Part shown: piece after piece, positions 13,510-47,714 of the stretch
Layout: the number at the start of each line of letters is the position of its first letter
Position numbering within the stretch: the first letter of the stretch is position 1
From: an uncultured virus (IMG/VR IMGVR_UViG_3300001605_000011)
Taxonomy: Duplodnaviria > Heunggongvirae > Uroviricota > Caudoviricetes
IMG/VR virus record: IMGVR_UViG_3300001605_000011
Length of the DNA stretch: 54,019 nt
Direction: 5' to 3' (one strand)
Translations under genes and position numbers: made by a program
Notes under the pieces: generated by a model
Told to the model about the DNA's origin: nothing
Databases searched by the model: none
What the model saw: the letters and a program-made list of their open reading frames with translations, nothing else

Positions 13510-13522
13510 TAATTGCCGGTCG

Positions 13523-26685: not shown

Positions 26686-28302
26686 TCAACAACAGCCTTG
26701 ATCACGCGATATCTTCGCCGGCGTGTCCCGCACCCCGATTAGCTTGGCCCACTCTGCCAGTCTGGGCTCTGTACCCAGCTTGCTGTAGCCTGTCTGCAGC
26801 AGCGTATGCACAAGACGTACAATTGCACCTGCTGCCAACATCTGCACGTATGTCTTACGTCGCACAGCTTCTGACGAGATCGCATTATGGCCCATGAGCG
26901 ACGCAGCGATCTCTTCGCCGATTCGCTGCACGTTGTTTTTGAGCATGCAGATCGTGTTTATCAGCAGCTCCTGCGACTCTGCCAGCACCCAATCATCTGT
27001 GTCATTGCACGTGATCAGACCTTCTCGTGACGGTACCCACTGGACGGGAGGCAACTGCTTGCTGTTGTCCAACGTATCCACGAACAGCTTCAGATGATTT
27101 ATCGACGCTGCTTCATGTGTGATCTCCCAGATACCGTTTGGACCGTTTGCCCGCAGCTTACCGTCGCTACCCTGACCAATTTCGTATTGGTAAGCGATGT
27201 TGCCAACGTAGATCATGACTTTCTCTACCGGCAGAATACAATTCTGCGGCAGTACCGTACAACCGTCCAGGCTGGTTTGCGCTAAAGCTTCAAACGCATC
27301 TATGGCTGGCTGTAGTACCTCAGACACATTAGGTTTTTCAGCCGGTTCTCCGTATTGCTTGCTTACCGTCCTGGTAAACGCATCTGGGACAATACCGATT
27401 GATGCGCGGTTGCTGCCAGACAGAATACCAATTGTGTACGTGTCCTTTTGGCTTTTGTAGCCCATGAACCACGCCGGACCGGACGAACAAGCACGTATGG
27501 CCTGCACGTTGTCGACGAAGTCACGATAGTGGCTGGCCGTATCTACCTCCTCGAGTTCGTACAGGTCTTTGTCGTCTACCAGCGGTAGACCTCGGGCGGT
27601 ACGGCTGGCGTACACATGCACGTGCGTGGCTGTGTACGGAGACCCGCTGTGCGACATGTTTCCGATAACTTCTTTGAGCTGAGTTATGCGGGTAGCAGGC
27701 GTATTTTTGGTTGCTGCAACAAGCGTTGCTGGGATGCGTACCGACAGGCCTACTGCGTTGTCCACGTCGTCTTTGTAGAACGGACCACGGACGCACGGAT
27801 AACCCTCCTCGTCGATGTACGCATGGTACGTAGCTGACCGCTTGCCGTCGTAGCTGATGACCTCGTACTGTTCGGCAACTGAGTACACGGCTTTTGCCCC
27901 GATACCCATTTGCCCTGTTTGATTGTTCTCTGTCTTCTTGTCAGAGTTGTTGAACGCAAAGTAGACGTTCAGCATCTTTTCAGGGTCAGGTATGCCCGAG
28001 GCGTAGTCCCTGAAGATGAAGTAGGGCGAGTCAATCGTAGGCGTGAACACTTCGATCAGCCCGTCGGGTTCCTCGACACGCACGTACTGGTCAGCCGCGT
28101 TTGTCAGCAGCTCTCGAAACACAGCCACCCATGGTTTTTTATACATGGACTTCGTATGCAATCTGAACGTATCTGCCGTGACGTGATACGCCGAACGCTT
28201 GCCAGCAAGCATGTCGCTGCTTGAGGATGTGCCAGGGCTTATTGGTGTGATTTGCATGTCTTTTACCTGCTGTGAGTTATCGTTCTGTCTGTACCCGCAC
28301 AC
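26686..28302 (-). CDS. rIIA-like GHKL (HATPase_c) protein
   Basis: MYKKPWVAVFRELLTNAAD, PYFIFRDYASGI, SDKKTENNQTGQMGIGAKAVYS. Confidence 0.8.
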   Translation of the reverse strand: MCGYRQNDNSQQVKDMQITPISPGTSSSSDMLAGKRSAYHVTADTFRLHTKSMYKKPWVAVFRELLTNAADQYVRVEEPDGLIEVFTPTIDSPYFIFRDYASGIPDPEKMLNVYFAFNNSDKKTENNQTGQMGIGAKAVYSVAEQYEVISYDGKRSATYHAYIDEEGYPCVRGPFYKDDVDNAVGLSVRIPATLVAATKNTPATRITQLKEVIGNMSHSGSPYTATHVHVYASRTARGLPLVDDKDLYELEEVDTASHYRDFVDNVQAIRACSSGPAWFMGYKSQKDTYTIGILSGSNRASIGIVPDAFTRTVSKQYGEPAEKPNVSEVLQPAIDAFEALAQTSLDGCTVLPQNCILPVEKVMIYVGNIAYQYEIGQGSDGKLRANGPNGIWEITHEAASINHLKLFVDTLDNSKQLPPVQWVPSREGLITCNDTDDWVLAESQELLINTICMLKNNVQRIGEEIAASLMGHNAISSEAVRRKTYVQMLAAGAIVRLVHTLLQTGYSKLGTEPRLAEWAKLIGVRDTPAKISRDQGCC

Positions 28303-29767: not shown

Positions 29768-31543
29768 TCACCTGCTTCCTAGTTTTACACCACACTTCGT
29801 TGTACCTTCCCACAGCTTGATGGTTGCCTGCCACGACTGCACTACCAGCTCATGCGTACTGGGTCGTCTTTGCTGCAACTCTCGCTTGATCCATGTCTGT
29901 GCATCCCATAGCTCGCCAAGAGTGTGGGTCAGCATGGCGGCATAATGCTCGTCGTGCGACCCGATACCCACAGCGTGTAGGTATTCGTGTGCCGCCACGC
30001 TAAGCAACCTGGACCGGGACTTCGGTCCCACCCAGTCAAACCTAGATCGTAAAATAGATCTGTCCTCCAGGTCGCCAGCCGCGACCGGGTTGATCAGCAC
30101 GGCCGGCATTTGTGACCGTGTGTGGAACATTCCGACTGCTTCTTTTGAAAACACGAAACCGACCTGCACACGCGGCATTCCTTGGTCCATCACGCTGTGC
30201 ACCACGCTCAGGACGTTGACCCAGTCCACTAACAACGTCAATGCTGCTTTGCTCAGCTTGTGCGAGCGTACGTCGTACTTCCCAGGTACTGTGTACGGTG
30301 TCATGTTACGCATCACTAGGTGGGACGTCGCGTCGTCCGGCTGATATTTTTGCCATGTTGACGCCCTGTCCACGCCCATCACCCACGGCCTGTCTTCGGT
30401 AGACACCGGCGAGGTTGTCGGGTCTGTCGACACTACCTCTGTCGGCTCCTGGACCGTGGGCAGCTCTGTATACCGTTCCGCATGAGTTGGGGTCTTTACC
30501 TCGTCTGCAGCAGCAGCACTATCCTTCTTCTGTCGCGATGGTCTGCCCAAGTACCTATTACCAATCAAACCCATGCTCAGCGCCTTGTCACCAAGGACAA
30601 ACATCTCGTCTTTCGCTGCAGGTATCGCCTTGATAGCGTTCGTGTACAGGTCGTCAACAAAATCACGTAGCTCCGCACCATAGGGGTACTTGAGCCCGTC
30701 TCGATTGGCCGTCAGTGGAAGCTCACCCAGCGAGGATGCCTGCTTGAGCTCAACGATGACGTAGTCCTTTTTACCTGACAGCCTTTCCTGGAACATAGGT
30801 ACGCCGCGGTACCGTACAACCAACTGACCGCCGTACATGTTATCGCCGGCGTATCGCTTCACCCGCCCAAACTCTTTGTGGGACCATCGTTTGTGCGGCA
30901 ACCTGTTCTCGTATCTACGCAGCTCACCTAGACGATGCTCACCGTACGGTGCCACGTACACCGTGGTATCAAACCCTTTGCCGGCGTGCGTAGCCATCCA
31001 TCGGATCCAGCGTAGCAGCGACTCGTGCCCGTAGGCAGCAACAGTGCTGAACGCTGTAACGTGCTCCCAATTCCGTCTTACATCACACTCGTGTGTGCTC
31101 TGCATTACGGCTGTTGCCGCCAGACCCGTCTCTGCTACCAGGAACGATGGCTTGTCTGTGTAAATTCTGTAGTTACCACCAGCCCCTGCAATCAGGCAAT
31201 CGCTGCCGCGGATTGCATACTCTTCATTGGCAAAGCACAGGATGACTTTCGCCTTGCCGAACGCACCTACAGATGAGTCGTTCAGTGTTTTGCTCGACTG
31301 TCCCAGCTGCATAAACCTGTCCTGAATCTGTGCCAGGGGAAACGGTGCACCGTTGTTTGCGCAGTAGATAACGGTTCTGTCATCGTCGAGCGGTGTCAGC
31401 TCGAAGTAGATCTGTGTTGCCTTAGCGTCTGAGGCGTTCTGGCAGAACTCTCGCACTATGGCGAGTGCCGGTATTGTGTAGTCCCTAGCCTCCTTCTTGA
31501 AGAAGTCTTGGCCAATGACTACTTGCGCGTTGCTCGGTTCCAA
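29768..31543 (-). CDS. GHKL ATPase fused to a C-terminal HExxH metallopeptidase-like domain
   Basis: IVREFCQNASDA, NNGAPF, GAFGKAK; AAHEYLHAVGIGSHDEHY. Confidence 0.8.
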   Translation of the reverse strand: MEPSNAQVVIGQDFFKKEARDYTIPALAIVREFCQNASDAKATQIYFELTPLDDDRTVIYCANNGAPFPLAQIQDRFMQLGQSSKTLNDSSVGAFGKAKVILCFANEEYAIRGSDCLIAGAGGNYRIYTDKPSFLVAETGLAATAVMQSTHECDVRRNWEHVTAFSTVAAYGHESLLRWIRWMATHAGKGFDTTVYVAPYGEHRLGELRRYENRLPHKRWSHKEFGRVKRYAGDNMYGGQLVVRYRGVPMFQERLSGKKDYVIVELKQASSLGELPLTANRDGLKYPYGAELRDFVDDLYTNAIKAIPAAKDEMFVLGDKALSMGLIGNRYLGRPSRQKKDSAAAADEVKTPTHAERYTELPTVQEPTEVVSTDPTTSPVSTEDRPWVMGVDRASTWQKYQPDDATSHLVMRNMTPYTVPGKYDVRSHKLSKAALTLLVDWVNVLSVVHSVMDQGMPRVQVGFVFSKEAVGMFHTRSQMPAVLINPVAAGDLEDRSILRSRFDWVGPKSRSRLLSVAAHEYLHAVGIGSHDEHYAAMLTHTLGELWDAQTWIKRELQQRRPSTHELVVQSWQATIKLWEGTTKCGVKLGSR

Positions 31544-32310: not shown

Positions 32311-32336
32311 ACAGCCGGCGCTTGAGCGCCGGCTGT
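32311..32336. repeat. Dispersed palindrome copy 9 (just downstream of the RNAP gene)
   Basis: acagccggcgcttgagcgccggctgt. Confidence 0.9.
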
Positions 32337-32362: not shown

Positions 32363-33337
32363 TTACTGCCGCTTGCGAAGTATCTTCACAGGCGTGTGTA
32401 CGTTGATATCACCACGTGCCAAAGCATTCTCTGCTTCTTCCATCGTTGCAAAAACGCGTTCACGCTGCTTGGTGCGGTTGCCCACACCTGATGCCATAGC
32501 AAGGCCAAGTAGCAAGTCCTGTGTCGGGGCAAACATAGGTGACTTGAAGTCTGACTCGCTGATCAGCAACTTGCTGGGCATCATGCGGTCGCGTATCTCG
32601 TCGATAGTTTTCTGACTGTGGGGCACGTGTACGTTGACGGTATCACCATCATTGTCTCCCCCAAATGGGGTGAAGACAACAGGGCTGAGTCGTACTGTAT
32701 TACCTTTCACCAGCACAGGGTTGAACGCCAGATCACCGTACTTGTGCAGAATTGGCGCACGTGACACGGTGACAGGTCGTACTTGCATTTCCTGGAGTAA
32801 AGCGTCACGTGCTCTGCTGTTTTTGCTCTCTGCATATTCAGCGGCAACATGGCGAGGTACACCTGATTGCACCATTCGTCGGATGATGTACGGCTCGTAC
32901 ATACGGAAGGCCATTTCTTCCGGTATGCCCGCTGTGTCCATATCGAGCTCAGTGTCGACCATGATCACACCGCGGCCAACAGTATCGACGTTACCGCTTA
33001 GCAGGCGTCGCTGCAGGATAGATGTCTTTGGTCCACCGCGACCAAGCACGTTCTGCAGAATACCCTTCACACTTCGCTGGCGTAGTTCAGGTGACGCTGG
33101 GTCCGTCAAACCCACTAACGCTTTATGTGCGTCGTACATAGCTAGCGTCTCGTCGCCAGCGTTTAGCCCGCGTTTGCTCAGCTCGCCGACATTCTCCCCA
33201 GCTAGCATCAACTCCTTGTACAAGTAATTGGCGTCGTTTACCAGCACGCCTCTCTTGCCTTGCATTTGCGCAATGGGCCTGAAGCGTGGTGGCAGCACAG
33301 GTACTTTGCTGATGAGTACTTCCTTCGGTATGTACAC
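32363..33337 (-). CDS. rpoC: RNA polymerase beta'-like catalytic segment (continuation of the fused RNAP gene)
   Basis: VPVLPPRFRP, VDTVGRGVI, SRAPILHK, FTPFGGDNDGDTVNVHVP, PTQDLLLGL. Confidence 0.92.
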   Translation of the reverse strand: MYIPKEVLISKVPVLPPRFRPIAQMQGKRGVLVNDANYLYKELMLAGENVGELSKRGLNAGDETLAMYDAHKALVGLTDPASPELRQRSVKGILQNVLGRGGPKTSILQRRLLSGNVDTVGRGVIMVDTELDMDTAGIPEEMAFRMYEPYIIRRMVQSGVPRHVAAEYAESKNSRARDALLQEMQVRPVTVSRAPILHKYGDLAFNPVLVKGNTVRLSPVVFTPFGGDNDGDTVNVHVPHSQKTIDEIRDRMMPSKLLISESDFKSPMFAPTQDLLLGLAMASGVGNRTKQRERVFATMEEAENALARGDINVHTPVKILRKRQ

Positions 33338-36300
33338 CCGATCGCTTAAAACCCTGCAGCTGCTGCATACGACGCACAGCCTTCTCTCGAGCTATCTTAC
33401 GAGAGCCACGGACATCCACACGGGCTTCCTCCAGCTCGTGGTCAACGTCTATCTCAGACAGTCGTTTCTCCAGTGCCTGGATACCTGTGCCGTACTTGCC
33501 CAGAGGCTCCTGTCCGGAGATCACCCCGCGGTACTGCTTATCTGTCAGGTCCAGTAGACGCTTGATGCTGGTTTCGAACACAGGGTTCGGAATCTTGGTA
33601 GGCAGCTCTATAACACCAAATTTATCTCCGTCCCCAAAGATAGCTGGATCCATGAGACCGCCCTTGATAGGTGCCAGGTCCTTGTACATGTCGACAGTGT
33701 CAGCCACGCGCACTACACGGCTACCGGCCAGCTTCTCCGTGTCCTTATCCGTCATGGCCATAAGCTGCACTTTCGTGCCAGACCGCACAGGATTGATGCC
33801 GGATGCCTTCAGCTTAGATATGAGCCCTTCGTACTGCTCAGACACTTGCGGCATACCTATCGCGTTCCCGGACATGAATGCTGCCCAGTAGTCATCCTGT
33901 CGCTGGCCACGAAGCAGCGTACCTTCTCGTGACGTTTCGTAAGCACCGTGTGCCAGGTGGCTGTAGAGCTGCTGCCCTGATTGCCGTTTTGCCTGTGCGT
34001 CGTCGGAGGCACCACGGGCCGGGAGATTTTCTGAATTTCCTGTCACAAGCACTTTGCCATTACGCCGGACCACTAGTAGGCCTGACGGTACAGTGGCACA
34101 GTACACGTAGCCCACGTATGGTTTTTCGTAAAACCTTGCGTTGGACCGTGGATGTTCACCGATAAAAGCGTCAGTACGCGTTAAAAACAAACCTACGGCG
34201 TATGCCGTTCGTACGTTATTTTCCTCATCGGCTACCTTACCGATGTGTATTCCACCACCTACACCTAACCGCATGGCGAGCTCTTGCACGTCATCCGCCA
34301 GCCGCTTCGACGTTGTCGTATAGCTACCGAAGGTTCTGGTACCCGTAACTTGGTAGCTACCATCGCCGGCCATCAGCGAGTCAAACAGCCTACGCCTGAC
34401 TGGTACAGACGCCTCCAGCAAAAATCGCGGGATGAACTTATTCTGACATCCCTTACCGAACTGACTTAAGTGCAAATACAACTGCTTACTGCGTATGCGG
34501 AATCCTCGCCTACCGGACTCAGGGTATTTTTTTGACGCCTTGGCTATTGAATACTTGAACGGTAGTCTGTCCAGCAACCACCGTATGCGTTTGAAGTCGT
34601 CCGGGTTTATGTGCTCGCACTGCGATATGGTCACATTCCACTCTCTCCATTTCTTGTTGTAAGTGGTTAACCCTTCGGACAAAAACCAGCCGACTAGCTC
34701 CGCATAGTCGCCTGCTTCGATGTGAACGTCTTCCGATCCCAGGCCGCCATGCTTGGGCCGCGGTACGCCAGGGATGGTGTAAAACACCGGGTTGCTTCCA
34801 GCATCTGGCAACATGCCAGCCTGTTTGGTGGCCCACCCTCGCTTTCTACTCGGCAAGTACGCTGCCTGAACGAAACGATACTGCTGGTTTGGTTGGTGCT
34901 CTTTACCTTTTCTGCGAGTGTTACGCACCCACATACGATGGTTCGGTGTCACCAGGTAGTCTATGTACCTGCCGGTAAACCCGCACAGCTTGCCCTTGTA
35001 TGCGTAACGTGCCACCGCCGTCGGTACCTCGTACACCAAGCGATTATCTGCGTCTACGCTAGCCAGTCGATCGTCGTCCTTAACCTCCGGCCAAGGCACC
35101 CAACCTCTGTCGGTCAGGGCCTCTGTCTGGTCATCGAAGCACGTGTACGCGCCGAGCCCGCGGGAGGAGACCTTAGACTCCGCTGTGTGGGACAGTGCCA
35201 TGGTGAACACTGGACCAACATTCACACCCTTGATCTTGCGTCCTGTCTTAGGATCAGTGACGTCTTCCTTGACTGGCACGCCATACTTCTCGGCTTCCTG
35301 CACTGCGTACTGCCAAGCGTCTCGGTCGTCCCTATCTTCCACGCGGTAAGCACGTCCGCGAGCCTTTGCTGCTTTGGCCAGCAGCATCTCGATAGGGAAC
35401 TCGCTGTTACCGCGGCTGGGCACTGCAAGTGGGCTGATTACCATGTCCACCCGTTCTCCGCGGGCGTCGATAGGCATCTCGGAGTCAGGCATGACAGTGA
35501 CCACGCCCTTGTTGCCAGCACGCCCACTGACCTTGGATCCAACCTCCAGTGGCGAGCTCGTGCGAACAACTACCTGTTTGCCCTGCTCGTCATTGTAGAT
35601 ATCTGTCACCACGCCATCGTGCTGGTGATCCCAGGTCAGTGACGCATCCGAGAAGTTGAGCTTGCCCTGCCTGTGTACTCGGTTACCGACTTCATTCTTC
35701 TCGCGTACGGCCAATAGCAATGGGTCACCCCGTCGCACCGTCGTACCTGGTCGGATTACACCATCGTCGTCTATGGCATCCAACTGCTTGGCATCGTAAA
35801 TGTTGCCGAAACGCACAACAAAGTCTTTCTTTCCGACTGTGTTGCCGTCCTTCTTCTCCATGCCGTACTTGTATGCCTGCTGCACACGCATAGCGTCCGC
35901 AGCAGACTGCGACACAATGATGCCGTCTTCCCAGTTGTCTCCCCACGCCATGAGGGCCGTGTTGAAGTTCTTCCCGAGCGCAGCAACACCCTCGTCGTCT
36001 GTGAAGTTGCTCTTGGCCAGTAACTGCCCAGGCGCGAACTGTTGCCCCACCTGCACCATGGGTGTGTGGTGAAACACAGATTTCCGTGCACCTGGTCTGT
36101 TGTTATCCAGGGATATCTTGTCCTGCGTTCCATCAGCATATTGCACAGTAAGCTGATCCGGAGCTGCCTTGATTACCCTGCCGCGACTCTTGGCGCGTAC
36201 GGCACCCATGATCTCGCCGGCCCTAGCCTCAAACGAGTCGTACTCTGTACCTGGCACACCTGTCTGCACCAGCGGAGCCTCGGGGTTGTCGATAGGTAAT

Positions 36301-36755
36301 GCCTGTGAGCTCATACGGGCTGCCATCCCTGATCGCTGCCCGAACATTGTTTTCTTGAGCGGGACGATGGACGCCGCGTGACCGTACAGTGACTCTGCGT
36401 CAGGTATGCGGTAATCCGCGGTACCAGCCTGGGCCATCTGCATCTTTCCGCCACGGACTACCACGTCGTAGCCTTTTGTGGACGACGGACCTATAGCCAG
36501 CGTAGCATCTGCCAAGTCACCAGGGGTCACAAACTTCTCGGCCCCTTCCCTGTCTTTGACAGGGATGTAGAGCTTGTTGTCCCGACCAATGTGGGCATTT
36601 CTGGTCAGTTGGCCGTCTACACCTACCTTCAAGCTATTACCGGTCCAAACGGCCGTAGAGCTGCCTGGGTCGCGAGTGTAAATCAACCCACCAGGCACTT
36701 CAGCACAGTAGACGTCACCGGCGTACTTAAACGTCGTCACGTAGGCGTTTATCAC
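33123..36755 (-). CDS. rpoB: RNA polymerase beta C-terminal half fused in frame to the beta' N-terminus; contains intein 2 and the end of intein 1
   Basis: ALGKNF...NWEDGIIVS, GSKVSGRAGNKGVV, NPLAVPSR-like ISPLAVPSR, LSH; then beta'-like PIKGGLMDPAIFG...FGVIEL in the same frame. Confidence 0.92.
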   Translation of the reverse strand: MINAYVTTFKYAGDVYCAEVPGGLIYTRDPGSSTAVWTGNSLKVGVDGQLTRNAHIGRDNKLYIPVKDREGAEKFVTPGDLADATLAIGPSSTKGYDVVVRGGKMQMAQAGTADYRIPDAESLYGHAASIVPLKKTMFGQRSGMAARMSSQALPIDNPEAPLVQTGVPGTEYDSFEARAGEIMGAVRAKSRGRVIKAAPDQLTVQYADGTQDKISLDNNRPGARKSVFHHTPMVQVGQQFAPGQLLAKSNFTDDEGVAALGKNFNTALMAWGDNWEDGIIVSQSAADAMRVQQAYKYGMEKKDGNTVGKKDFVVRFGNIYDAKQLDAIDDDGVIRPGTTVRRGDPLLLAVREKNEVGNRVHRQGKLNFSDASLTWDHQHDGVVTDIYNDEQGKQVVVRTSSPLEVGSKVSGRAGNKGVVTVMPDSEMPIDARGERVDMVISPLAVPSRGNSEFPIEMLLAKAAKARGRAYRVEDRDDRDAWQYAVQEAEKYGVPVKEDVTDPKTGRKIKGVNVGPVFTMALSHTAESKVSSRGLGAYTCFDDQTEALTDRGWVPWPEVKDDDRLASVDADNRLVYEVPTAVARYAYKGKLCGFTGRYIDYLVTPNHRMWVRNTRRKGKEHQPNQQYRFVQAAYLPSRKRGWATKQAGMLPDAGSNPVFYTIPGVPRPKHGGLGSEDVHIEAGDYAELVGWFLSEGLTTYNKKWREWNVTISQCEHINPDDFKRIRWLLDRLPFKYSIAKASKKYPESGRRGFRIRSKQLYLHLSQFGKGCQNKFIPRFLLEASVPVRRRLFDSLMAGDGSYQVTGTRTFGSYTTTSKRLADDVQELAMRLGVGGGIHIGKVADEENNVRTAYAVGLFLTRTDAFIGEHPRSNARFYEKPYVGYVYCATVPSGLLVVRRNGKVLVTGNSENLPARGASDDAQAKRQSGQQLYSHLAHGAYETSREGTLLRGQRQDDYWAAFMSGNAIGMPQVSEQYEGLISKLKASGINPVRSGTKVQLMAMTDKDTEKLAGSRVVRVADTVDMYKDLAPIKGGLMDPAIFGDGDKFGVIELPTKIPNPVFETSIKRLLDLTDKQYRGVISGQEPLGKYGTGIQALEKRLSEIDVDHELEEARVDVRGSRKIAREKAVRRMQQLQGFKRSGVHTEGSTHQQSTCAATTLQAHCANARQERRAGKRRQLLVQGVDASWGECRRAEQTRAKRWRRDASYVRRT
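34035..35141 (-). mobile_element. Intein 2 with LAGLIDADG homing endonuclease (369 aa)
   Basis: GAYT|CFDDQTEALTDRGW ... VTPNHRMWV ... LVGWFLSEG ... LMAGDG ... VYCATVPSGLLVVRRNGKVLVTGN|S. Confidence 0.92.
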
Positions 36756-37695
36756 CTTTAACGTTGTTCTTGCCGTTTACGTTACGGATGGTTCGCTTGT
36801 GTATGTAAATTTCGTACAGGTCGTGATAGGTATCTTTCCTGTCGTCCGGGTGTACTCCAATATCGGACGTACTTTGCCCTAGCGAAAACAGTACCCGCTG
36901 CAAGCCAACCACCAACTCCAGGCTAGTGCTCGAGTACGAGCTGCGATCGCCGTGGCGATCTAGGCGACCGTCTCCGCTGATTAGCGACGTAACAAGTGCC
37001 TTCCTGGCCGATACCGGCCAGTCTAGTACCTCGTCAGGTACGAACTTCTCGTGTGCCAGCCCGAACTGGCTCAAGTATTTAGCAATCGGCGGCGACGAGA
37101 ACGTGATTCCTCGACCGCTCTTCTTGTCTTGGTAACTGATACCCATGCGAGCGAGCAGATCAGCGATGGCAGCGTACTGCTCCGGGTTCTTATCTCGCAC
37201 TTTGGTGATATCAACACTTGCTCGCATTACCCCGCCACTTGGCAGCTCGTCGTAAGTGGTGTTACCTTCCGACAGGTACCACCCCAAAAACTCCGCCCAA
37301 TCTTCAATTGCGAATTTGGTGGGCTGATCTAGCGTACGCGGACTGGCACTGGGCGGAAGCTCGAAGTGGGTGATTGCCTCGTCTCCTACATACGGAGCGT
37401 GACCACCACACTGTAGCTGCCCGGTCTTGCCGAATAACTCCTGCGACTCCTTCAGGCGGAACTTCTTCACACCCATGGGCCGGAACCACATGCGGTGGTT
37501 AGGCGTAGACACATCCCGCAGATTCCTACCACCGATCTCTACCATATCCCCGACGTAATGGGATTTGATCAGCTTGATCGGGGTATGCCATTCCAAGCGG
37601 CCGTCGATCATACAGGCCAGCTCTAGCTCCGGCGTAAGCGTGTCCCACCGTACCCAGCCACCGCGGGTCATCACCTGCCCGTCAGGTAGCTTGCA
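36636..37695 (-). mobile_element. Intein 1 with LAGLIDADG homing endonuclease, frame break near its C-terminus
   Basis: TPE|CKLPDGQVMTRGGW ... TPNHRMWF ... FLGWYLSEG ... LISGDG ... then VYCAEVPGGLIYTR...WTGN|S in the next frame. Confidence 0.9.
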
Positions 37696-38658
37696 CTCTG
37701 GTGTCATCAGGATATCAACGAACCCGAACTGTCCGACGCTAATGTTGCGACTCTCGTCCGGTGTTGCAGTCGTTGAAGGTAAGCCACCCTCTCCGTACCT
37801 GGTGAGCTTGGTCAGCGTGGCCCGCACGTCGAGCGGATTAGTCTCCTCAATAGCTGCTGCCAGCCCGCTCCCGTTGATTGCAGCTTGGATTTGCCCGTCG
37901 AGGGCAGAAGATGCGATTGCGTCTGTGCTGTTCTTACGCAACGCTTTGTAGAGCAACTGCTTACGCATCCGACCGTAGTCATTCTTTATCCTCTCAGAGA
38001 AAATGTCTTCCGGACCGTGGTAACTGGCGTACATGGGGTGGTCGCGGTCATCTGGCGTTGCCGTACCTCTAGCGACATTAAGTACCTTATCAACTGCGGC
38101 CAGGATGACGTCTGGAGTTACCCTGTCTGACTCCATGCCTACTGTGCGTCTAGCTACCTCCGGGTCGATCACCATGTCATCGAATGCTTCCCGGATCTTT
38201 TGCTGCATCAGCCCCTTGTCTGCGTGGTCTTCTTTGCTCTGGTACCGCTTTGGTACCAGGCGTTCGTACAGCTTTCCTAGTGATTTGCCGTCAACCTTCT
38301 TGTAGTTGACATCCGCCAGCTCATCTCCCCAGCGGGACTTGATAGCTTCTTTGTCAATCCCGAACACGTCCAGCAACGCTGCCACAGGCACCTGGGAGTT
38401 GTTCACCTCGACGCTGACTACGCCAGTCTCCGGTGCCAGCACGTAGCTGTGGGACTTGCCGTGCCCTGTCGCAATGTTCATCTGTGCCGCAACTTCGCCT
38501 GAGTTGCGGTTACGCACGAATACGCCTGGCCTCAGCCGCTGCTGATAACCCATGACGTACTTCGTCCCACGCGAGATGAATGACCCATCGTGAAGAATAG
38601 CTGGCACGTTAGCAACGGTGCCTGTCTTGTGCGATATCACCTTGCCTCGTGATGTCAT
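36727..38658 (-). CDS. rpoB: RNA polymerase beta N-terminal part plus most of intein 1
   Basis: GSFISRGTKYVMGYQQRLRPGVF, DDRDH, ETNPL, GEGGL, GFVDILMTPE. Confidence 0.88.
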   Translation of the reverse strand: MTSRGKVISHKTGTVANVPAILHDGSFISRGTKYVMGYQQRLRPGVFVRNRNSGEVAAQMNIATGHGKSHSYVLAPETGVVSVEVNNSQVPVAALLDVFGIDKEAIKSRWGDELADVNYKKVDGKSLGKLYERLVPKRYQSKEDHADKGLMQQKIREAFDDMVIDPEVARRTVGMESDRVTPDVILAAVDKVLNVARGTATPDDRDHPMYASYHGPEDIFSERIKNDYGRMRKQLLYKALRKNSTDAIASSALDGQIQAAINGSGLAAAIEETNPLDVRATLTKLTRYGEGGLPSTTATPDESRNISVGQFGFVDILMTPECKLPDGQVMTRGGWVRWDTLTPELELACMIDGRLEWHTPIKLIKSHYVGDMVEIGGRNLRDVSTPNHRMWFRPMGVKKFRLKESQELFGKTGQLQCGGHAPYVGDEAITHFELPPSASPRTLDQPTKFAIEDWAEFLGWYLSEGNTTYDELPSGGVMRASVDITKVRDKNPEQYAAIADLLARMGISYQDKKSGRGITFSSPPIAKYLSQFGLAHEKFVPDEVLDWPVSARKALVTSLISGDGRLDRHGDRSSYSSTSLELVVGLQRVLFSLGQSTSDIGVHPDDRKDTYHDLYEIYIHKRTIRNVNGKNNVKGDKRLRDDV

Positions 38659-39020
38659 CGCGANNCTGCCAGGTACCTCGCAAACGCCTGCTTAGGCTGC
38701 CGCGACGCAGTAACGCCTTCTTCTCGTCCCGCACGTCGTAGTCCGGNTCGTCNTTNGCGTAGTGCACATCCGTCAGCAGAAGTGACTTGCCGTTGGCCGA
38801 CACCGCCGGCATTGCCGCAGCAGCTTCAGCTACGCGTTCGTATACGGCACGCCGCATCTCTGCGATGTCATCTACTCGGCGGTATGGTAAAGGTGCAGCA
38901 GGCTGTAGTGCGGGCGACTGCTGCATAGCCGTCGTTGATGTAGCAGGCTGCCCCATCTGCAACTGTCCCTGCTGCAACTGGGGTGCTCCGGCCAGTGTGA
39001 CCGTAGGGATCTTAGGCGAT
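38609..39020 (-). CDS. Extreme N-terminus of the RNAP beta-like gene (Ns, frameshifted; start uncertain)
   Basis: EKKALLRRGSLSRRLRGTWQ resembles the beta ECxxRxxTYSxPLR region; Ns at 38664-38756. Confidence 0.6.
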
Positions 39021-39911
39021 GGTTCGCTGTTTACCCTTAATAGGCTTCCGCTTGCGTTTGGTTGGCTGGAGGCTTTCATCATCTTTGGGCACGACCGCTA
39101 CGGTAGTTGGGACAGCTCGCTTCGGGTCAATAATCATTCGCTCTTCGTTGGCCCTGGCAATGGCTTTGCTGCGTGACGCACCGTATGCCTTGCTAGCGCC
39201 CTGGTGACCAGCATACGCGGCTAGACCTCCCGCCGCTAGCAAGTACGCCCCCAGTATCCGGTTAAACATACGAGTAGCCCCACCGTCCTCGTACGCCAAC
39301 TTGTGCTGTCCGGTCTTGTCGATTGCGTCCAGAAGTACGTCAAACGACTCCGCCAGCTCGCACGATGTCTTGCGCGTGGCGAAGCTGTGCAAGGCTGCCT
39401 CATATTCCGCCTTCGCTTTGTCCAGCTCTCGCTGACGAATGCGATTGCGAATTCCACGAATTGTCGCTGCGGTCAGCTTGCCCCCCAGCATCGCACCGCC
39501 CACGACAGTCGCCCCGGCTACCGGGGCAAACATGGCGAAGTCCTTCGGTGCCCTAGCACTGTCGTTAGGTATTGCTGTTACCAGGTCAGCTATCGACGCC
39601 TGCTTTTCGATGATCCGAACAGGAGCTGTTTCTTCACGCTTGATCAGCTTGCGGTGCTTTTTGTCACGACGCAACCTGGCCAGCTGCACTAGGCTGGTTG
39701 TCACGGCACCTGCGCCGGCTGATACACCGAGCAGCTGCATGAGCTGTGGGCTGATTTGGCTTACCGCATTCTGATGGAACTCCTTACGTACCTGCTCAGG
39801 CGATGGCAGATTGCCGGCCAGCTTAGCTGCGTTATTGCGGATAGACTTAGGTGTATTCACTTCGCAACTACTCGTGTACGTGTTCCAGTAAATCTTTTGA
39901 CAGCAGAGCAC
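39012..39911 (-). CDS. Putative internal virion protein (hydrophobic Gly/Ala segments, K-x-A motifs)
   Basis: KLA, KQA and KLA motifs separating hydrophobic helices. Confidence 0.65.
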   Translation of the reverse strand: MLCCQKIYWNTYTSSCEVNTPKSIRNNAAKLAGNLPSPEQVRKEFHQNAVSQISPQLMQLLGVSAGAGAVTTSLVQLARLRRDKKHRKLIKREETAPVRIIEKQASIADLVTAIPNDSARAPKDFAMFAPVAGATVVGGAMLGGKLTAATIRGIRNRIRQRELDKAKAEYEAALHSFATRKTSCELAESFDVLLDAIDKTGQHKLAYEDGGATRMFNRILGAYLLAAGGLAAYAGHQGASKAYGASRSKAIARANEERMIIDPKRAVPTTVAVVPKDDESLQPTKRKRKPIKGKQRTIA

Positions 39912-40248
39912 GCTGCTCCACCCACGCGATGTCGTAATACACCCGCGGTTTTACCTTATCCCCACCACGAACGATAGTTTGGAATCGGATAATTTGAAAC
40001 TCACCCAGACCCGCCCGTTCGAAAACATCTGCCAACGTTCTATCGTAATGCTTTTCTTCCGGTACTTTGATGTCAAAAACACCACAACCGAACTTGCCTA
40101 CAATTACCGTGCTCGTGTTGAACTCGTCGTCAGACATCAACTCCTGATTGTGGCCGACAATCGGTACACGGTGTTCTTTGTAAAACCGATAGTCCAGTTG
40201 GCTTGTTTTTGCCGCTTTGTCTTGGCGATTACGCCGCGTCACTCCCAT
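39868..40248 (-). CDS. Hypothetical protein
   Basis: 126 aa ORF in operon context. Confidence 0.6.
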   Translation of the reverse strand: MGVTRRNRQDKAAKTSQLDYRFYKEHRVPIVGHNQELMSDDEFNTSTVIVGKFGCGVFDIKVPEEKHYDRTLADVFERAGLGEFQIIRFQTIVRGGDKVKPRVYYDIAWVEQRALLSKDLLEHVHE

Positions 40249-40744
40249 CTTGCTGCCCCTTGCCGTGTCGTCTGTAATTCTCTGCGTTTCTACGCAGTGC
40301 AGCTACCAGCTCCTGGTGCTGTATTTCTTTGATCTGCGACGCGTCATCGCCTGCCATTTCAGCCAGCCCTTTACCAGTCAAGTAGGCCCCTCCCGCTAGC
40401 GCAACGGGTGCCGCTACCGCCACGGCAGGTGCCGCACGCATAGCGAGCGATGTAATACCGTCTGTCAACTTACCCGCACGTGTGCCTGCCCACCCACCTA
40501 GCTGACTTGCCAGCGTTGCTAGCAAAGATACCGCCACCGGACCCGCCGGCACGTTGGCTAGCTTACGCATACTTTCGTGGTCATCATCCGACTGCATGCA
40601 TAGGATCAGATCTGCCGGCGACATAACGACAGCTGCTTCCGCCATCGCGTTTACCGCCAACTTAACCTGGGCATGCGTCATACCCTGTGCGATAAGACCC
40701 GACAGGATTCCGCCCACCACCGCGATACGCTGCTGTTCGTTCAT
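40229..40744 (-). CDS. Putative internal virion protein
   Basis: Ala/Gly-rich; KLA twice. Confidence 0.65.
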   Translation of the reverse strand: MNEQQRIAVVGGILSGLIAQGMTHAQVKLAVNAMAEAAVVMSPADLILCMQSDDDHESMRKLANVPAGPVAVSLLATLASQLGGWAGTRAGKLTDGITSLAMRAAPAVAVAAPVALAGGAYLTGKGLAEMAGDDASQIKEIQHQELVAALRRNAENYRRHGKGQQDGSDAA

Positions 40745-41157
40745 TTTGCTTTCTTTATGCTAGCCATAGATACAGAAACCGGACGTGACCGCAGCCGAGC
40801 TCTCCGCATGCTTTCGTCTTCGTACTCGCCCTGCTCTTCTGCCTTCTTGATCGTCTCGTCGAGGCGTGAGGCAAACACTTCAGTTACTCTGGCACGCTCG
40901 CGAAACTGCGGGTCTCGCGTTTGTGCCGCCGCTTCTTTGTAACGGGCGATCATGTCACCCAACGCACCGAGTCTGGCTCTAGCGGATGACTGGGCCAGCG
41001 AGTTCTCCTGCACGACGCCGTTTTCGTCAGGCTTTCGCATGATCACACGCCCGTTTCTCGCGAACATCTCGATGTCCGCCAGGGTATCGCCTGCACCTTT
41101 GTTTCGGCTGATTTCCTGTGGTAGGTACAGGCCGCTGGCTGATCGTGAAAAACTCAT
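40741..41157 (-). CDS. Hypothetical protein
   Basis: 138 aa; ATGA coupling. Confidence 0.65.
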   Translation of the reverse strand: MSFSRSASGLYLPQEISRNKGAGDTLADIEMFARNGRVIMRKPDENGVVQENSLAQSSARARLGALGDMIARYKEAAAQTRDPQFRERARVTEVFASRLDETIKKAEEQGEYEDESMRRARLRSRPVSVSMASIKKAK

Positions 41158-41158
41158 T

Positions 41159-42091
41159 TCAATTACCGAAAATTAGTGGTACTGCCTTGCGTATCACACC
41201 GGCGAACATTCCTGTACGACGTAAAGTTCGCTGTGTTTCTGGTGATACGTTGAATAACGCCCCCAACATCTTACCCGCGGCGAAGCCTCCCAGGTAGCCA
41301 CCACCGGCAGACAGGCCAACCATGCCGAGATCACCTGCTGTTACACCTATCGCAGGCCTGTAGGGGTTGCTCACCCGCCTGGCACCCTCCATCGCCACGG
41401 TAATACCGACCCGTACTTCCTGCGGCAACTTCTGCGAGACGTAAGGGTCGTTCCATGCAATGCCGGTTATCTTCGACGGAACCACCATGTTCTGCCCTGC
41501 GTAAGAAAACCCTGCTGCCGTTTTCTGGCCCAGCAGGACGTCTCGTAAGGATTCACCACCGTGCATGCGTATGGCACCTGCGGCAGCCGCAGGTGCCGCA
41601 CCTAGCAGAGCCCCGGCGGCCGTCATGCCCAACCGTCTTTTACGGTTATCCGTCTCCTGTGCTGCGTCTGCTGCACGCCCTGTTGCGTACCCTAGGCCAC
41701 CACCCAGCATGCCTAACGCTAGCATGCTGACTAACACATTAGGTCTTGTGCTAATGCCACCTATGGTCCCAGGCCACAGCTGCGATACCACGCCGGCCTG
41801 GTGCAGTAGCGATGAATGCTGCGGCGGCCTTGTTCTTTTGTCATCCAAAGTTTGGCGATGGTAGCTCTCCAGATCAGGTACGTTGTCAAATCCTGTATCC
41901 GACCGGTTGACCAGCTCTTCAGCAAGCTTCGTGGCCTGGTCGCATGCGGCTGCGACCAGACCACTAACGCCCTCAAGTGACTCGTCACAGTCCGTAGTCA
42001 ATATCGAGTGGATCACCCCTGCGACTTTGTTGCCAGAGTCGCTGAAGCTGTACATACACGCGATGAACTCTTCCAATGACAAGTCAGTCAT
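41159..42091 (-). CDS. Glycine-zipper putative internal virion protein
   Basis: GMLGGGLGYATG and GGGYLGGFAAGKMLGAL; KVA, KLA and KTA motifs. Confidence 0.7.
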   Translation of the reverse strand: MTDLSLEEFIACMYSFSDSGNKVAGVIHSILTTDCDESLEGVSGLVAAACDQATKLAEELVNRSDTGFDNVPDLESYHRQTLDDKRTRPPQHSSLLHQAGVVSQLWPGTIGGISTRPNVLVSMLALGMLGGGLGYATGRAADAAQETDNRKRRLGMTAAGALLGAAPAAAAGAIRMHGGESLRDVLLGQKTAAGFSYAGQNMVVPSKITGIAWNDPYVSQKLPQEVRVGITVAMEGARRVSNPYRPAIGVTAGDLGMVGLSAGGGYLGGFAAGKMLGALFNVSPETQRTLRRTGMFAGVIRKAVPLIFGN

Positions 42092-42094
42092 AAC

Positions 42095-42595
42095 TCACTC
42101 GGTCGCCGTCTCGACTGTGTCGTCAACCATCGGCTGTTCAAAATGTGTTTGAACCGTTGGTTGCGCGGGCTCGGTCTCTACGGCAACAACTGGCGACTGT
42201 TTTTGCTTCGCCTTCCGCGGCTTTCGCGGCTTTCGTGAGCTGACCTTGACTTCTGGTTTCTCGACCACTTTCGCCGGCTTTGGCGAAACCGCATGCTTTG
42301 CCCGCGTAATCGGATCCGGCAAAACCTCTACCGTAATGTCCCTGCTCGGTACCGGATCGTCGGCAGACACGTTCCCGCGTACACGACGTTCAGCGTAAAA
42401 AACGCTCATCGCCATATCGACCTTACGGTGGTCGTTTCCAGGGACGTCGACCACCACGTTGAGCGATCCTTCCCGCACACTACGAGTGCTCGTGGTCAGG
42501 TTGCCCGCGGCATCTTTGTACGTGTACCGCAAAAACCGCTGATTAGACCGTAGTGGTCCAGTTACGGGTGACAGTGCTACCGAGTAGCGAATCAT
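42095..42595 (-). CDS. Hypothetical protein with Lys/Pro-rich tail
   Basis: 166 aa ORF. Confidence 0.6.
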   Translation of the reverse strand: MIRYSVALSPVTGPLRSNQRFLRYTYKDAAGNLTTSTRSVREGSLNVVVDVPGNDHRKVDMAMSVFYAERRVRGNVSADDPVPSRDITVEVLPDPITRAKHAVSPKPAKVVEKPEVKVSSRKPRKPRKAKQKQSPVVAVETEPAQPTVQTHFEQPMVDDTVETATE

Positions 42596-42598
42596 AGT

Positions 42599-43363
42599 TT
42601 AACCCTGCATGTTAATGGTTTTCTGATTGCGTTCCTGCAGCCAGTCTGCACGATCGAAACACAACCTGCAAGTGTTGCACGTCAGCCGGCTTATTTGCGT
42701 TACTTTACGCTTTTTACGCTCGACTGGACATACTAACGCGTCACCAATTGTAACAGCGTATTCCTTGCGTGTCTTTCTAAACACCAGATCCACTGGAAAT
42801 GACGCCGGCTCCAGGTTGTCCGTCAGGTAAGCCCGCAGCACTCCAGCGGTTTCCGGTGGCGGGCCAGTGACAGCGTCGCAGCTGAACCACAGCTGCACGT
42901 TCCGTAGCTTGGCAAGTTTTGTCAACGCTACCAGCATACTCTTAGACACGTTTCCGTCGCGGTCACGCCAGCTTCGCGTGTACGCGTAGAACTTCGTCGT
43001 GGGCACTGTAGTGGCAATCTTTCGCCACAAGTCAGTGTAACCCACGCTGTCAAAATCGCCTGACGAGTGTATCCGGACGGTCTGTACCGTCTCGAGACGT
43101 ATCTGCTGTCTTACCCGATACGCGAAATCAGCCTCGTTTCGAAGCTTGTCGTTCAGTTCGTACCGGCGTTGTACCGATGCCAACAGATAGTGCCCGCCCT
43201 TTGCGTAACAGTCTTCTGCGCAGCCGCCCTCGCCTATACTCTCGCCTGGGCAGGTTTTTCCGGCTGGCAGGGCAAAGTGCCAAATGGCTTTGCCTAGTTT
43301 CATGTTTCCCGCAATAAGCGGTGGCGGAAAGAACAGCACACGCGATGCGGTGTCTGTAGTCAA
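42599..43363 (-). CDS. GP88-like (phage gene product 88) Cys-rich protein
   Basis: GNMKL...FALPAGKTCPG...CAEDCYA...RIHSSGDF...FYAYTRSW...CNTCRLCF. Confidence 0.75.
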   Translation of the reverse strand: MTTDTASRVLFFPPPLIAGNMKLGKAIWHFALPAGKTCPGESIGEGGCAEDCYAKGGHYLLASVQRRYELNDKLRNEADFAYRVRQQIRLETVQTVRIHSSGDFDSVGYTDLWRKIATTVPTTKFYAYTRSWRDRDGNVSKSMLVALTKLAKLRNVQLWFSCDAVTGPPPETAGVLRAYLTDNLEPASFPVDLVFRKTRKEYAVTIGDALVCPVERKKRKVTQISRLTCNTCRLCFDRADWLQERNQKTINMQG

Positions 43364-43379
43364 CTACTTTGCTCCGGTG

Positions 43380-43889
43380 TCACACCACCTTACGCACCTT
43401 CGAGTTTTGCAATACCCGTCGGCGACGCACCGCGACGGTGATGTGGAATTTGAATGTTCTCCCGTCTTTGGTCGGGAGTGGCGTAAGACCATAGGACTTA
43501 CGCAGATTTTCCAGATCAGGTGAGTCCACGCTCAGGAACCACGCACGTTCCATCTCTTTCCAGCCGGCAGGCTCAACTTCCTTCAGCTCACCCAACTGAT
43601 AGTTAAACCGTTTGCCGACCTCGGTGACCTTGCTTAAGTCACCAATCTGGGCTATTTCCTCGGGCCGCATCACGCTGATGTGCGCGTTCAGCGTACCGTC
43701 CGAATGGTACGGCAGCTCGGCACCAGGAACATCCAACGCAAAAAACGCACCACGCAAGATTGCGTTGGGTACGCTCAGCAGTAGCCATCCACTTTTGGAT
43801 CGCTGCAGCCTCCCGGAGAAGGCCGGCACTGCTCGCGGTCGTTTGTAGGCCAGCTTAAACGCCGCAGATTGCGTCAGATCTATCTTCAT
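43380..43889 (-). CDS. 2H phosphoesterase
   Basis: Two Hx(S/T) motifs: AHISV and FHITVA; SPDLENLRKSYGL. Confidence 0.8.
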   Translation of the reverse strand: MKIDLTQSAAFKLAYKRPRAVPAFSGRLQRSKSGWLLLSVPNAILRGAFFALDVPGAELPYHSDGTLNAHISVMRPEEIAQIGDLSKVTEVGKRFNYQLGELKEVEPAGWKEMERAWFLSVDSPDLENLRKSYGLTPLPTKDGRTFKFHITVAVRRRRVLQNSKVRKVV

Positions 43890-43903
43890 ACCGCAGTTTT
43901 CCT

Positions 43904-43922
43904 GCCGGCGCTCAAGCGCCGG
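43904..43922. repeat. Dispersed palindrome copy 10 (inverted orientation)
   Basis: gccggcgctcaagcgccgg between a stop at 43923 and a start at 43889. Confidence 0.9.
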
Positions 43923-44521
43923 TTAGCCCAACAACCAGCGGTACTTGTCACGCAACTTTGCGAACGACTGCAGTTTTTGCTCGATTTCTTGCTGCTTAGC
44001 CTGTGCTGGTCGTACCATGGTCTGAATCGGTCGGGTGACGTCGTACTCAGAACCGGCAGCACTTTGAACACCGCGAATAACCGGAACAGCAGCACCGTAC
44101 GCAGTTGCATTGCGTAGGCCTGTACCGAGCAAGCCTTTATTGCGTAGTAGTGTGTACACGTAGGACGGTCCGCGGGAGAAGCCACTTGCCGCCCCCAACA
44201 CCCCGACCAACCACTGCCCCTGCTCCGGGCGAATCTACCCCAGTCATGGTTCCGAACGCGGAATCCGCACCATGACCAGTAACTGTACCCGCCAGACCCG
44301 ACCCGCCTACGCGTAACGCCAGTATTTCGGCTGCCGACAGCGGTCGACTTTTTNCCNTTCAGTCAGCGACAACAACTTTGCCCGATCCACGCCGCTGTCT
44401 GCTTAGCTACGTTCAGCAATCCGCCGACAGCCACTTTCTGGCGACCAGCGGCAGTGTTACTGATGTTCCTGCCGACATCCCGTCGTGTTGCCAACTTGTA
44501 CGCGCGATATAGCTCACTCAT
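43923..44521 (-). CDS. Gly-rich putative virion protein, broken by Ns or indels
   Basis: ATG at 44521 (MSELYRAYKLATRR...QKVAVGG); C-terminal part is ORF 43923..44210. Confidence 0.5.
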
Positions 44522-45366
44522 CGTATGTTTCCGTTGTAAATGTCTTCAAGTCGCTGTGCGTAGATTTGCTTGGTAGCATCTGCCGTCTGCGCCACTCGCA
44601 TAAAGTTAGCTTCACCACCCGTAATTGCTTCCTGCACTGAACCAAGCATCGCCAGGTCAGCCAGGCGTTTTAACGGAGGTGCTACCCACTGGTCAAGATG
44701 CTTTCGAGTGTCCCCTTTGGTTGTTAGCCGTCGCAACACCTGCATCGGGTGGTTTTTGTTACCTCGCACTGCCGCAGACGTACCAGCTCTACGGGCAGCT
44801 CGTGCTAGCCATGGATTGGCTGCACCAATCAATGTCCCGGCCAGCATGCCTAAGCCATTTGACTCGAAACCTGGATACTCAACGGCAGCATCAACGCCTG
44901 CACCAGCGTAGCCACCTGCCATCCCGCCGCTAATTGCTCGTGTAAGCATAGGCGACGTTCGACGACTGAACGCTCGCGTCAGATTTGTAATGGTACCGGT
45001 TATACCTTTCGCTGAGCGTACCGGGCCGCTCACGGTATTAAAGCCGACTGGAGCTTTGTACGCCCCGGCCCTGCCGAACCTTGCAGCACGCATAAGCGGG
45101 CTAAACATCTGTGGTTTAAGCGGCATCGCTAGTTTTTGCTGTGATGCTGCCTTAATCGGCGAAAACGCGGTCAGCTCTTCCGTAGACTTGCCTACAGGCA
45201 TTATCGACGGGCCGAACATTGCCTCGCGTGCTTTCTGAATAGCCTTGAACTGTGCCGTCGGTTTTGGCAACACACGGACTACACCAGCGCCTGGTACGTC
45301 AAAGATATTGACGCTTCTCATCGCTGTCTTAGTCAGTGTCGTCTGCATGTCACGTTGCCTTGGCAA
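44518..45366 (-). CDS. Glycine-zipper putative internal virion protein
   Basis: GGMAGGYAGAG and GLGMLAGTLIG; KTA, KAA and KLA motifs. Confidence 0.65.
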   Translation of the reverse strand: MPRQRDMQTTLTKTAMRSVNIFDVPGAGVVRVLPKPTAQFKAIQKAREAMFGPSIMPVGKSTEELTAFSPIKAASQQKLAMPLKPQMFSPLMRAARFGRAGAYKAPVGFNTVSGPVRSAKGITGTITNLTRAFSRRTSPMLTRAISGGMAGGYAGAGVDAAVEYPGFESNGLGMLAGTLIGAANPWLARAARRAGTSAAVRGNKNHPMQVLRRLTTKGDTRKHLDQWVAPPLKRLADLAMLGSVQEAITGGEANFMRVAQTADATKQIYAQRLEDIYNGNIR

Positions 45367-47103: not shown

Positions 47104-47714
47104 AGCAGTAAGGACTCCGCCATGTCATGGCTGGCCAGCAGCTCCGCTGGCGCTCTCGGGTAGAGTTGTCCGGCCATCTCCATACTCTTATCTTTGTCGC
47201 CCTTCAGCTTCAACCCGGCACGCCAGGAGGTAGCCGACACCTCCGCGAAGTCACAGCCTGCCACCTTGAAGGCGGTATACCAGGCGTTTTGACACCGGCC
47301 ACTACCAAAGTGGGATGCTACGGACTCGAAATGTCCTCGAGCCCGCTGCATCCCGGCCCCCGATGTTTTCAGGGGGGCCTCTATCAGAAAGAACAGGCCG
47401 CTGTAGCCCGCAACTGCTGCCTTTGCTGCTAGCTCCGTAATGTCGTAAAGCAACTGTGCTGTGTTAAAACATCGTGTCGACCGCGGTTTCAACTCACCTG
47501 CGTTGCGACCAACCTTGAAGCGTTTTTTGGCCAACGCGACCTTCGATTTACTCACGAGTGACTTCTCTCTCGCGAGGTCAGCCTCGAACGTCCGCACGTG
47601 TACAGCGTACGTCGGCACAGTTTTGAAGTAAAACACCTCGCTACTGTCGACGGCCACCATGCCGCCTTTTGCTCCGAAGTCGATACCTACTGGCATCAGT
47701 CGCGTCGCAGGCAT
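47061..47714 (-). CDS. RuvC-like Holliday junction resolvase
   Basis: VGIDFGAKGG, FLIEAP, VSATSWR, KDKSM, HDMAESLLL. Confidence 0.8.
   Translation of the reverse strand: MPATRLMPVGIDFGAKGGMVAVDSSEVFYFKTVPTYAVHVRTFEADLAREKSLVSKSKVALAKKRFKVGRNAGELKPRSTRCFNTAQLLYDITELAAKAAVAGYSGLFFLIEAPLKTSGAGMQRARGHFESVASHFGSGRCQNAWYTAFKVAGCDFAEVSATSWRAGLKLKGDKDKSMEMAGQLYPRAPAELLASHDMAESLLLCHYLKTHGQRYLA

Follow-up and report, generated by a model that had tools for sequence, protein, structure and literature searches.

Full-length fusions of the RNA polymerase (RNAP) subunits beta and beta' occur in Helicobacter and Wolbachia, where the C-terminus of beta runs on into the N-terminus of a whole beta', while the zinc ribbon and alpha are kept. 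In cyanobacteria, beta' is instead cut within the Rpb1_3 region into RpoC1 (gamma) and RpoC2. Among phages, the RNAPs of phiKZ and AR9 are alpha-free, have a beta' split past the catalytic barrel and include one form that is packaged (PMC7598289, PMC7824862). The beta and beta' homologues of the tailed phages grouped as mReC can be aligned to cellular enzymes and form a long branch outside bacteria (PMC7481178). The DNA considered here, referred to as the window, is the whole 54,019-nt stretch of an uncultured virus (IMG/VR record IMGVR_UViG_3300001605_000011), a phage fragment in which nearly all long genes lie on the minus strand. One minus-strand gene encodes an RNAP chain in which beta is joined to the front of beta'. 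The full explanation that best fits the evidence, held with good confidence, is that this gene encodes the large chain (chain 1) of a two-chain, bacteria-derived phage RNAP core, the second chain (chain 2) carrying the rest of beta'.

The features of the gene are collected in Table 1. Its start is taken to be the ATG at 38956, which is preferred because a start at 39082 would overlap the upstream gene. A preliminary description, made from the sequence alone, had proposed that beta C-terminal motifs run into beta' N-terminal motifs within one frame, and this is borne out: on the minus strand, GSKVSGRAGNKG (35540-35505), LSHTAESK (35195-35172), EGLISKLKASGINP (33830-33789), MAMTDKDT (33761-33738), GGLMDPAIFG (33662-33633) and FGVIEL (33620-33603) share one stop-free frame (36776-33126). 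The end of beta, KASGINP (33789), is followed by nine residues and then by the MAMTDKDT that begins beta' (33761), with no stop between. A second frame carries the chain on through GGDNDGD (32662-32642) to GDINVHTPVKILRKRQ, with the stop at 32363. Pfam domain Rpb2_6 is found in the long frame (E 5e-40) and Rpb1_2 in the last one (E 3e-18), with weaker matches to Rpb2_2, Rpb1_1 and Rpb1_3 and two LAGLIDADG domains in the frames of the gene. Removal of two inteins leaves a chain close to the roughly 1500 aa that had been anticipated. Its C-terminal end maps to about residue 550 of E. coli beta', and the beta' part is about 466 aa long. Both double-psi barrels are thus present in one chain, that of beta' with DxDGD and that of beta with two lysines, as in multisubunit two-barrel RNAPs. 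Because chain 1 combines beta with the beta' clamp and barrel, both halves of the active site reside in one polypeptide, as the sequence and a structural model show.

Table 1. Coordinates of the RNAP chain 1 gene and associated features in the window
Feature	Position	Strand	Remarks
RNAP chain 1 gene	32363..38956	-	~2196 codons including inteins; ~1474 aa spliced
Beta-equivalent part	33789..38956	-	matches Salmonella RpoB 113-224, 419-932, 1052-1147 and 1207-1337; shortened flap tip
Link from beta end to beta' start	33762..33788	-	9 residues; stop-free; no indel in run contigs
Beta' N-terminal part	32363..33761	-	clamp without N-terminal zinc ribbon, clamp helices, catalytic double-psi barrel
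Catalytic Mg-binding motif GGDNDGD	32642..32662	-	cellular counterpart NADFDGD; all three Asp retained
Beta double-psi-barrel motif GSKVSGRAGNKG	35505..35540	-	two catalytic lysines
Intein 1	36636..37695	-	Cys to Asn, LAGLIDADG, 353 aa; sits in beta TPE/S motif
Intein 2	34035..35141	-	Cys to Asn, LAGLIDADG, 369 aa; near beta end
Extra assembly base	33329		lacking in contigs of public runs X1, X4 and X5
Extra assembly base, within intein 1	36747		lacking in X1 and X4; X5 without coverage
Extra assembly base	38648		by eye: X5 and X6 loose ends at 38647 one base shorter
20-bp palindrome	32314..32333		30 nt past the chain 1 stop codon; 9-10 copies are present in the window

A single frame slip had been described in this gene, but three frame breaks were found, and all of them are assembly errors in the form of an extra base. 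Two of the public runs used for this comparison (X1 and X4) may be the source sample and X5 is a second study; X6, which covers 12 of 30 bins, was used for its loose end only. Since the breaks are false, the gene is intact. Set against intact homologues, its frames abut exactly, and the family profile spans positions 9-1472 of 1473 over the four overlapping frames. The idea that misassembly of an ordinary rpoB-rpoC pair produced both the fusion and the early stop could draw on the Ns and the three false frameshifts of the window. It is already refuted, however, by the run contigs, which list no indel at the beta/beta' junction or at the stop where they cover them (the junction was the place where a stop or frameshift had been proposed as the decisive check), and by the presence of both features in 118 of the 120 listed homologues and in two annotated cultured phages.

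These homologues come from a search for longer relatives in which 457 hits were found among 8000 candidates scored, 120 of them being listed. The DxDGD motif lies 91-102 residues before the C-terminus in the 118 (97 in the window), and 76 of the 120 are 1440-1510 aa long. The two exceptions contain a LAGLIDADG domain, probably an intein within the motif. The early stop of chain 1 is thus real and a trait of the family.

The same layout is found in cultured phages. Salmonella phage Arash (OQ632216) encodes gp206 (1525 aa) and gp216 (606 aa), and Vibrio phage D69 (OZ195729) encodes 0261 (1527 aa) and 0264 (609 aa), with D148 and D181 matching likewise; the separate 606- and 609-aa proteins match Rpb1_4/5. 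A single-protein scan of viral contigs gave no relative, but an alignment-based scan confirmed 354 stretches, of which 80 were kept, and whole records were searched for 37 of these, mostly the longest. An Rpb1_5 match was present in 34 of the 37 records, including all 20 that were at least 90% complete, and the half carrying the bridge helix and trigger loop (about 600-650 aa) was nearly always a gene of its own. In the fetched flanks of the 80 loci, chain 2 was separate in 58, fully fused in 5 and not found in 17; the separate gene lay 0.85-10.8 kb downstream in 57 cases and upstream in one. Larger gaps were seen in the closest relative, G001 (19.8 kb, with non-structural genes between), and, worked out by hand, in G021 (about 36 kb) and G022 (about 51 kb). 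Chain 2 begins at the TTxGR strand and retains the motifs of the bridge helix and the trigger loop, including the trigger-loop His, while its zinc site is retained in 29 and lost in 34 of 63 scored rows. On the beta' structure 8i23_D of the PDB, chain 1 reaches to residue 566 and chain 2 takes over at 578, so the two chains tile beta'.

The window itself contains no beta' C-terminal half detectable by a six-frame search with a hidden Markov model (HMM; best E 1.7). The preliminary description had left open whether this half is encoded elsewhere or is dispensable. The relatives speak for the former and give no support to the latter, and an enzyme lacking bridge helix and trigger loop is very unlikely. 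Chain 2 of this phage thus probably lies outside the 54-kb fragment. Its location does weigh against the two-chain reading, since chain 2 lies less than 6 kb downstream in most relatives, whereas none is present here in the 32 kb downstream or the 15 kb upstream of the chain 1 gene. In addition, neither chain 2 nor a sigma of the family is within the window, and therefore both are presumed to be present in this phage. The absence could also mean that this phage has lost chain 2, so that chain 1 is decaying or functions with neither bridge helix nor trigger loop; moreover, in one relative (L031) chain 2 is followed by a gene whose homologue lies at 7180-7935 of the window with no chain 2 adjoining. 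Such a loss is nevertheless highly improbable, given that chain 2 is present in every near-complete relative, at times as far off as the distances given above, and that the chain 1 gene is intact with its catalytic residues retained.

Two further observations concern the chain 2 genes of relatives. In eight loci (L017, L021, L022, L023, L027, L029, L059 and L065), chain 2 carries C-terminal extensions of about 350-850 aa past the RNAP part. In L061 (G027), both RNAP genes are broken into many short frames under translation table 11, which suggests a reassigned stop codon.

Besides the two-chain core, relatives encode a sigma factor. The Pfam model PF04542 by itself is a poor probe for the sigma of this family, with matches in 6 of 24 records that are mostly to other sigmas, and Arash gp10 was therefore taken as the query. 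Of 26 records searched, 24 contain a homologue of gp10, among them all 20 that are near-complete, so that a sigma co-occurs with the two-chain RNAP in relatives; the two records without it are the 42%-complete G001 and the unrelated Rhizobium phage RHph_TM30. These proteins are about 230-290 aa long, with Pfam sigma regions 2 and 3 and, by eye, a region-4-like helix-turn-helix. Several relatives encode an additional, conventional sigma. The earlier statement that no sigma is recognisable therefore holds for the window, where a six-frame HMM search for the family sigma found none (best E 0.93), but does not extend to the near-complete relatives.

The alpha families PF01193 and PF01000 were matched in none of 24 related records, as compared with 14 of 14 control genomes. 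The alpha dimer of bacterial cores was hence not seen in these records, the genome of this phage itself being incomplete. It counts against the proposed alpha-free enzyme that the absence rests on two Pfam models, which a divergent scaffold would escape. The N-terminal zinc ribbon of beta' is also missing, with no Cys in the matching columns of 85 of 85 rows and none in 58 of 58 spans found by pattern. Compared by eye, the residues around the rifampicin pocket are also unlike those of bacterial enzymes. In cellular enzymes, alpha binds RpoB at about 1050-1230 and RpoC at about 520-550, and these regions are still alignable in the phage chains. Together with an alpha search made by Pfam alone, this would fit a core that borrows host alpha (and omega), or that uses an unrecognised phage protein as its assembly platform. 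Either alternative is considered unlikely, as the covalent beta-beta' link provides a tether and phiKZ-like enzymes assemble without alpha (PMC7598289).

An AlphaFold model of the 909-aa C-terminal piece of the closest relative (mean predicted local distance difference test score, pLDDT, 85; predicted template modelling score, pTM, 0.66) shows no low-confidence segment at the junction and matches bacterial beta chains and cyanobacterial gamma/beta' chains (E ~1e-31). A complex of the sigma and the beta' N-terminal part of G002 scored 0.77 against 0.00 for the best control. Of solved complexes, 116 of 157 attain this mark, as do 2 of 215 mismatched pairs. The runs shared at least 32% of contacts, and the partner pLDDT was 71 or higher. 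The closest contacts were on the clamp helices, on which, according to this model, sigma probably docks. Because sigma-RNAP complexes have already been solved, this pass may reflect memory and indicates likeness, not binding.

Whether the enzyme is carried in the virion can be approached through Arash. In its particle proteome, gp206 gave 3516 spectra, the most of any particle protein, with 1210 for gp216 and 467 for the sigma gp10 (PMC10585845 Table 2), which we calculate as 2.3, 2.0 and 2.0 spectra per residue, respectively. The preliminary description had placed the gene of the window behind putative internal virion proteins and had suggested a packaged, injected RNAP. In relatives, homologues of the genes upstream of chain 1 likewise lie upstream of the RNAP gene, but these genes of the window gave no informative Pfam or PHROG match, and the suggestion gains its support indirectly, from a particle preparation of uncertain purity. 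The composition of this preparation speaks against packaging: it contained 116 of the 252 Arash proteins, many of them metabolic (reductases, ligases, primase), and the authors raise carry-over as an alternative (PMC10585845). The two-chain enzyme could then be a non-virion protein made after infection for middle or late genes, with the particle signal due to carry-over, and the second, conventional sigma of several relatives would suit such a role. However, the rank of gp206, the near-equal signal of the three subunits per residue and the position of the chain 1 gene in Arash and D69, after the portal gene and one small open reading frame, make a purely intracellular enzyme rather improbable. 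By analogy with Arash, the RNAP is likely to be packaged in the virion of the present phage.

The origin of the layout was addressed using fully fused relatives. Single-chain beta-beta' phage RNAPs were found at six loci (L062, L067, L068, L074, L084 and L119), with lengths of 2069-2150 aa except for L074, which reaches 2420 aa owing to an insertion. Their junction aligns with bacterial beta', and the N-terminal zinc ribbon is also missing in those displayed. Trees were built with FastTree (74 phage and 27 bacterial rows) and, for 28 phage and 12 bacterial rows, under LG+G4 and C20 with posterior mean site frequencies (PMSF; quick tree), the smaller set also serving for approximately unbiased (AU) tests. 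Near-duplicates, loci with fewer than 1150 profile columns, the fragmented L061 and the phages TM30, RP13 and IME392, whose beta was not fetched, were left out. With bacteria as the outgroup, the phage enzymes form one clade (Shimodaira-Hasegawa-like approximate likelihood ratio test, SH-aLRT, 100), within which the chain of the window is sister to L006 (SH-aLRT 100) and falls in the same clade as Arash and D69. The fully fused forms lie outside the split forms, the split clade having SH-aLRT 90 under LG+G4 and 80 under C20 PMSF, and 1.0 with FastTree. In the trigger loop, the four fused forms displayed have a bacteria-like FH-G, and the split forms S-KH or V-KH. A full beta-beta' fusion followed by a single cut is the shortest history and is favoured, although not proven. 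On the other side stand the AU tests, which do not reject trees nesting the fused among the split forms (p 0.145 and 0.081), so that the fused forms may instead have arisen by re-fusion. The bacterial donor could not be placed in these trees, in which the phage stem is long. As a separate observation, a bacterial contig (L122:1356-7403) carries rpoB and rpoC in one open frame of 2016 aa running to the contig end, and it groups with Microgenomates sequences despite its Gammaproteobacteria label.

Taken together, the proposed enzyme would be organised as follows. Chain 1 (about 1470 aa) provides the whole of beta together with the clamp and catalytic barrel of beta'. Chain 2 (about 600-650 aa), as seen in relatives, brings in the funnel, the bridge helix, the trigger loop and the C-terminal clamp strand, and would dock on chain 1 to restore a bacterial-like crab claw. 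A compact sigma-70-family factor of about 240 aa, with regions 2-4, would sit on the clamp helices and select phage promoters, while the covalent link between beta and beta' probably replaces the role of alpha in assembly. If Arash is a guide, both chains and sigma are probably packaged and injected, and would start phage transcription without the host enzyme. The layout would have arisen by the full fusion, then a cut in a surface loop past the catalytic barrel. A more far-reaching proposal, advanced tentatively and rated a little short of even, is a complete alpha-free, sigma-dependent holoenzyme of three polypeptides (two if fully fused), present in the virion at about 1:1:1, in which fusion has replaced the alpha scaffold, the zinc ribbon has been lost and a later cut has set free the half with bridge helix and trigger loop as a subunit in its own right. 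If true, few promoter-specific enzymes of the cellular type would be simpler. The family is large, as the hits among the scored candidates indicate, and has cultured members, which allows a direct test of whether an RNAP that closely resembles the bacterial one and uses a true sigma still assembles and initiates when alpha and the beta' zinc ribbon are absent. That the bridge helix and trigger loop sit on a subunit which can be separated also offers a natural tool for studies of catalysis.

Elsewhere in the window, a GC-rich 20-bp palindrome recurs, mostly between genes (3416, 8073, 10659, 16259, 21931, 23952, 24814, 28527, 32314 and 43904), with 9 matches in the window and none in 100 shuffles. 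It is a candidate regulatory site or terminator-like hairpin. The palindrome was lacking in the 234 relative loci examined and in G001, and therefore it is not claimed as a promoter of the RNAP. When scanned for elsewhere, it turned up in 2 viral contigs and in 86 metagenome stretches, with a single copy in each of the 80 listed. As a route to more of this phage it was rejected, since none of the 90 loci scanned resembles the window or encodes chain 2. Another motif, composed of the blocks TGAC and ATCGATAA on the minus strand, occurs in five copies at 18901-20540, about 40-70 nt before small genes; these copies look like a promoter class.

Other genes of the window include, on the minus strand, paralogues with an MRWRDIRF-like start (10728-17882), in one of which a unit of about 57 aa is repeated internally, two proteins that weakly match HATPase_c (GHKL) (29768-31543 and 26686-28302) and Ala-/Gly-rich proteins with several Lys-x-Ala motifs, counted with no control (39012-45366 and 5886-7935). 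Matches were also obtained to a MYG1-like exonuclease (23097-23924), GP88 (42599-43363), a 2H phosphoesterase (43380-43889) and a Holliday junction resolvase (47061-47714), the last being the sole named family among PHROGs matches of neighbouring genes. A 539-aa protein (52320-53939, minus strand), conserved in G001, is RecA-like by eye and has no Pfam or PHROG match. A PEP-CTERM protein (12455-13051, minus strand; E 5.6e-06) is a weak hint at an exosortase-using host. Equally weak host clues come from two family phage contigs, L118 (183 kb) and L119 (163 kb), which were binned in metagenome-assembled genomes of Thermoguttaceae (Planctomycetota) and Leptolyngbyaceae (cyanobacteria), respectively.

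Compared with known systems, the enzymes of Arash and D69 are the closest, with the same chain boundaries, a sigma-like partner, no alpha match and a place in the same clade. Like them, the chain of the window comprises beta fused to the N-terminal portion of beta' and ends about 95 aa past the catalytic motif; they differ in having about 29% identity to P0001, a close homologue of the window chain. The available text of the Arash paper calls the chains simply beta and beta', leaves the moved boundary unremarked and presents no activity assay (PMC10585845). In Ralstonia phage RP13 and Escherichia phage IME392, beta' is likewise split in Rpb1_3 (N-terminal parts of 517 and 522 aa, C-terminal parts of 486 and 504 aa), but the N-terminal part is not fused to beta, whereas the beta' of TM30, at 1127 aa, is unsplit, and a gp10 homologue is lacking there.

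To be selected as mReC, phages needed hits to beta and beta' no shorter than 800 aa, with NADxDGD (PMC7481178; Weinheimer and Aylward 2020). In 22 rows of the supplement, beta and beta' are different proteins (PMC7481178), while the window has a fused chain, GGDNDGD and a beta' part too short for such a selection. None of the 80 viral loci matches the 97 mReC contigs, as compared by eye on dataset number and length (PMC7481178). With the chains annotated simply as "beta" and "beta prime", most of the family would escape a survey that asks for a long beta' carrying NADxDGD. The phiKZ and AR9 enzymes differ in having four or five core chains, a split beta, two paralogous enzymes and no recognisable sigma (PMC7598289, PMC7824862); the window instead encodes an undivided, fused beta, and its relatives conserve a sigma-70-family factor. 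Derivatives of cellular-type enzymes with fused barrels are mentioned in PMC10770324, although a fused-then-split phage family was not found in the part of it available. No description of this layout was found in the literature, with an earlier mention possible in subscription papers or supplements.

Cyanobacterial gamma is among the top structural matches, and the proposal that beta' is split near the RpoC1/RpoC2 boundary is borne out, the cut lying close to the cyanobacterial site but not at it. Chain 1 stops at residue 555-558 of the 624-626 residues of gamma, and chain 2 starts about 10 residues ahead of the start of RpoC2 and includes the TTxGR strand. Furthermore, gamma is a free chain, with no fusion to beta, and alpha is kept in cyanobacteria. 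The phage counterpart of the Helicobacter and Wolbachia fusions is the fully fused form of 2069-2150 aa. The re-cut RNAP, which is widespread and apparently undescribed, brings known moves (fusion, split and alpha loss) together in a new combination, and the same region of beta' has been the site of several cuts, in cyanobacteria, in phiKZ-like phages, in RP13-like phages and in the present lineage.

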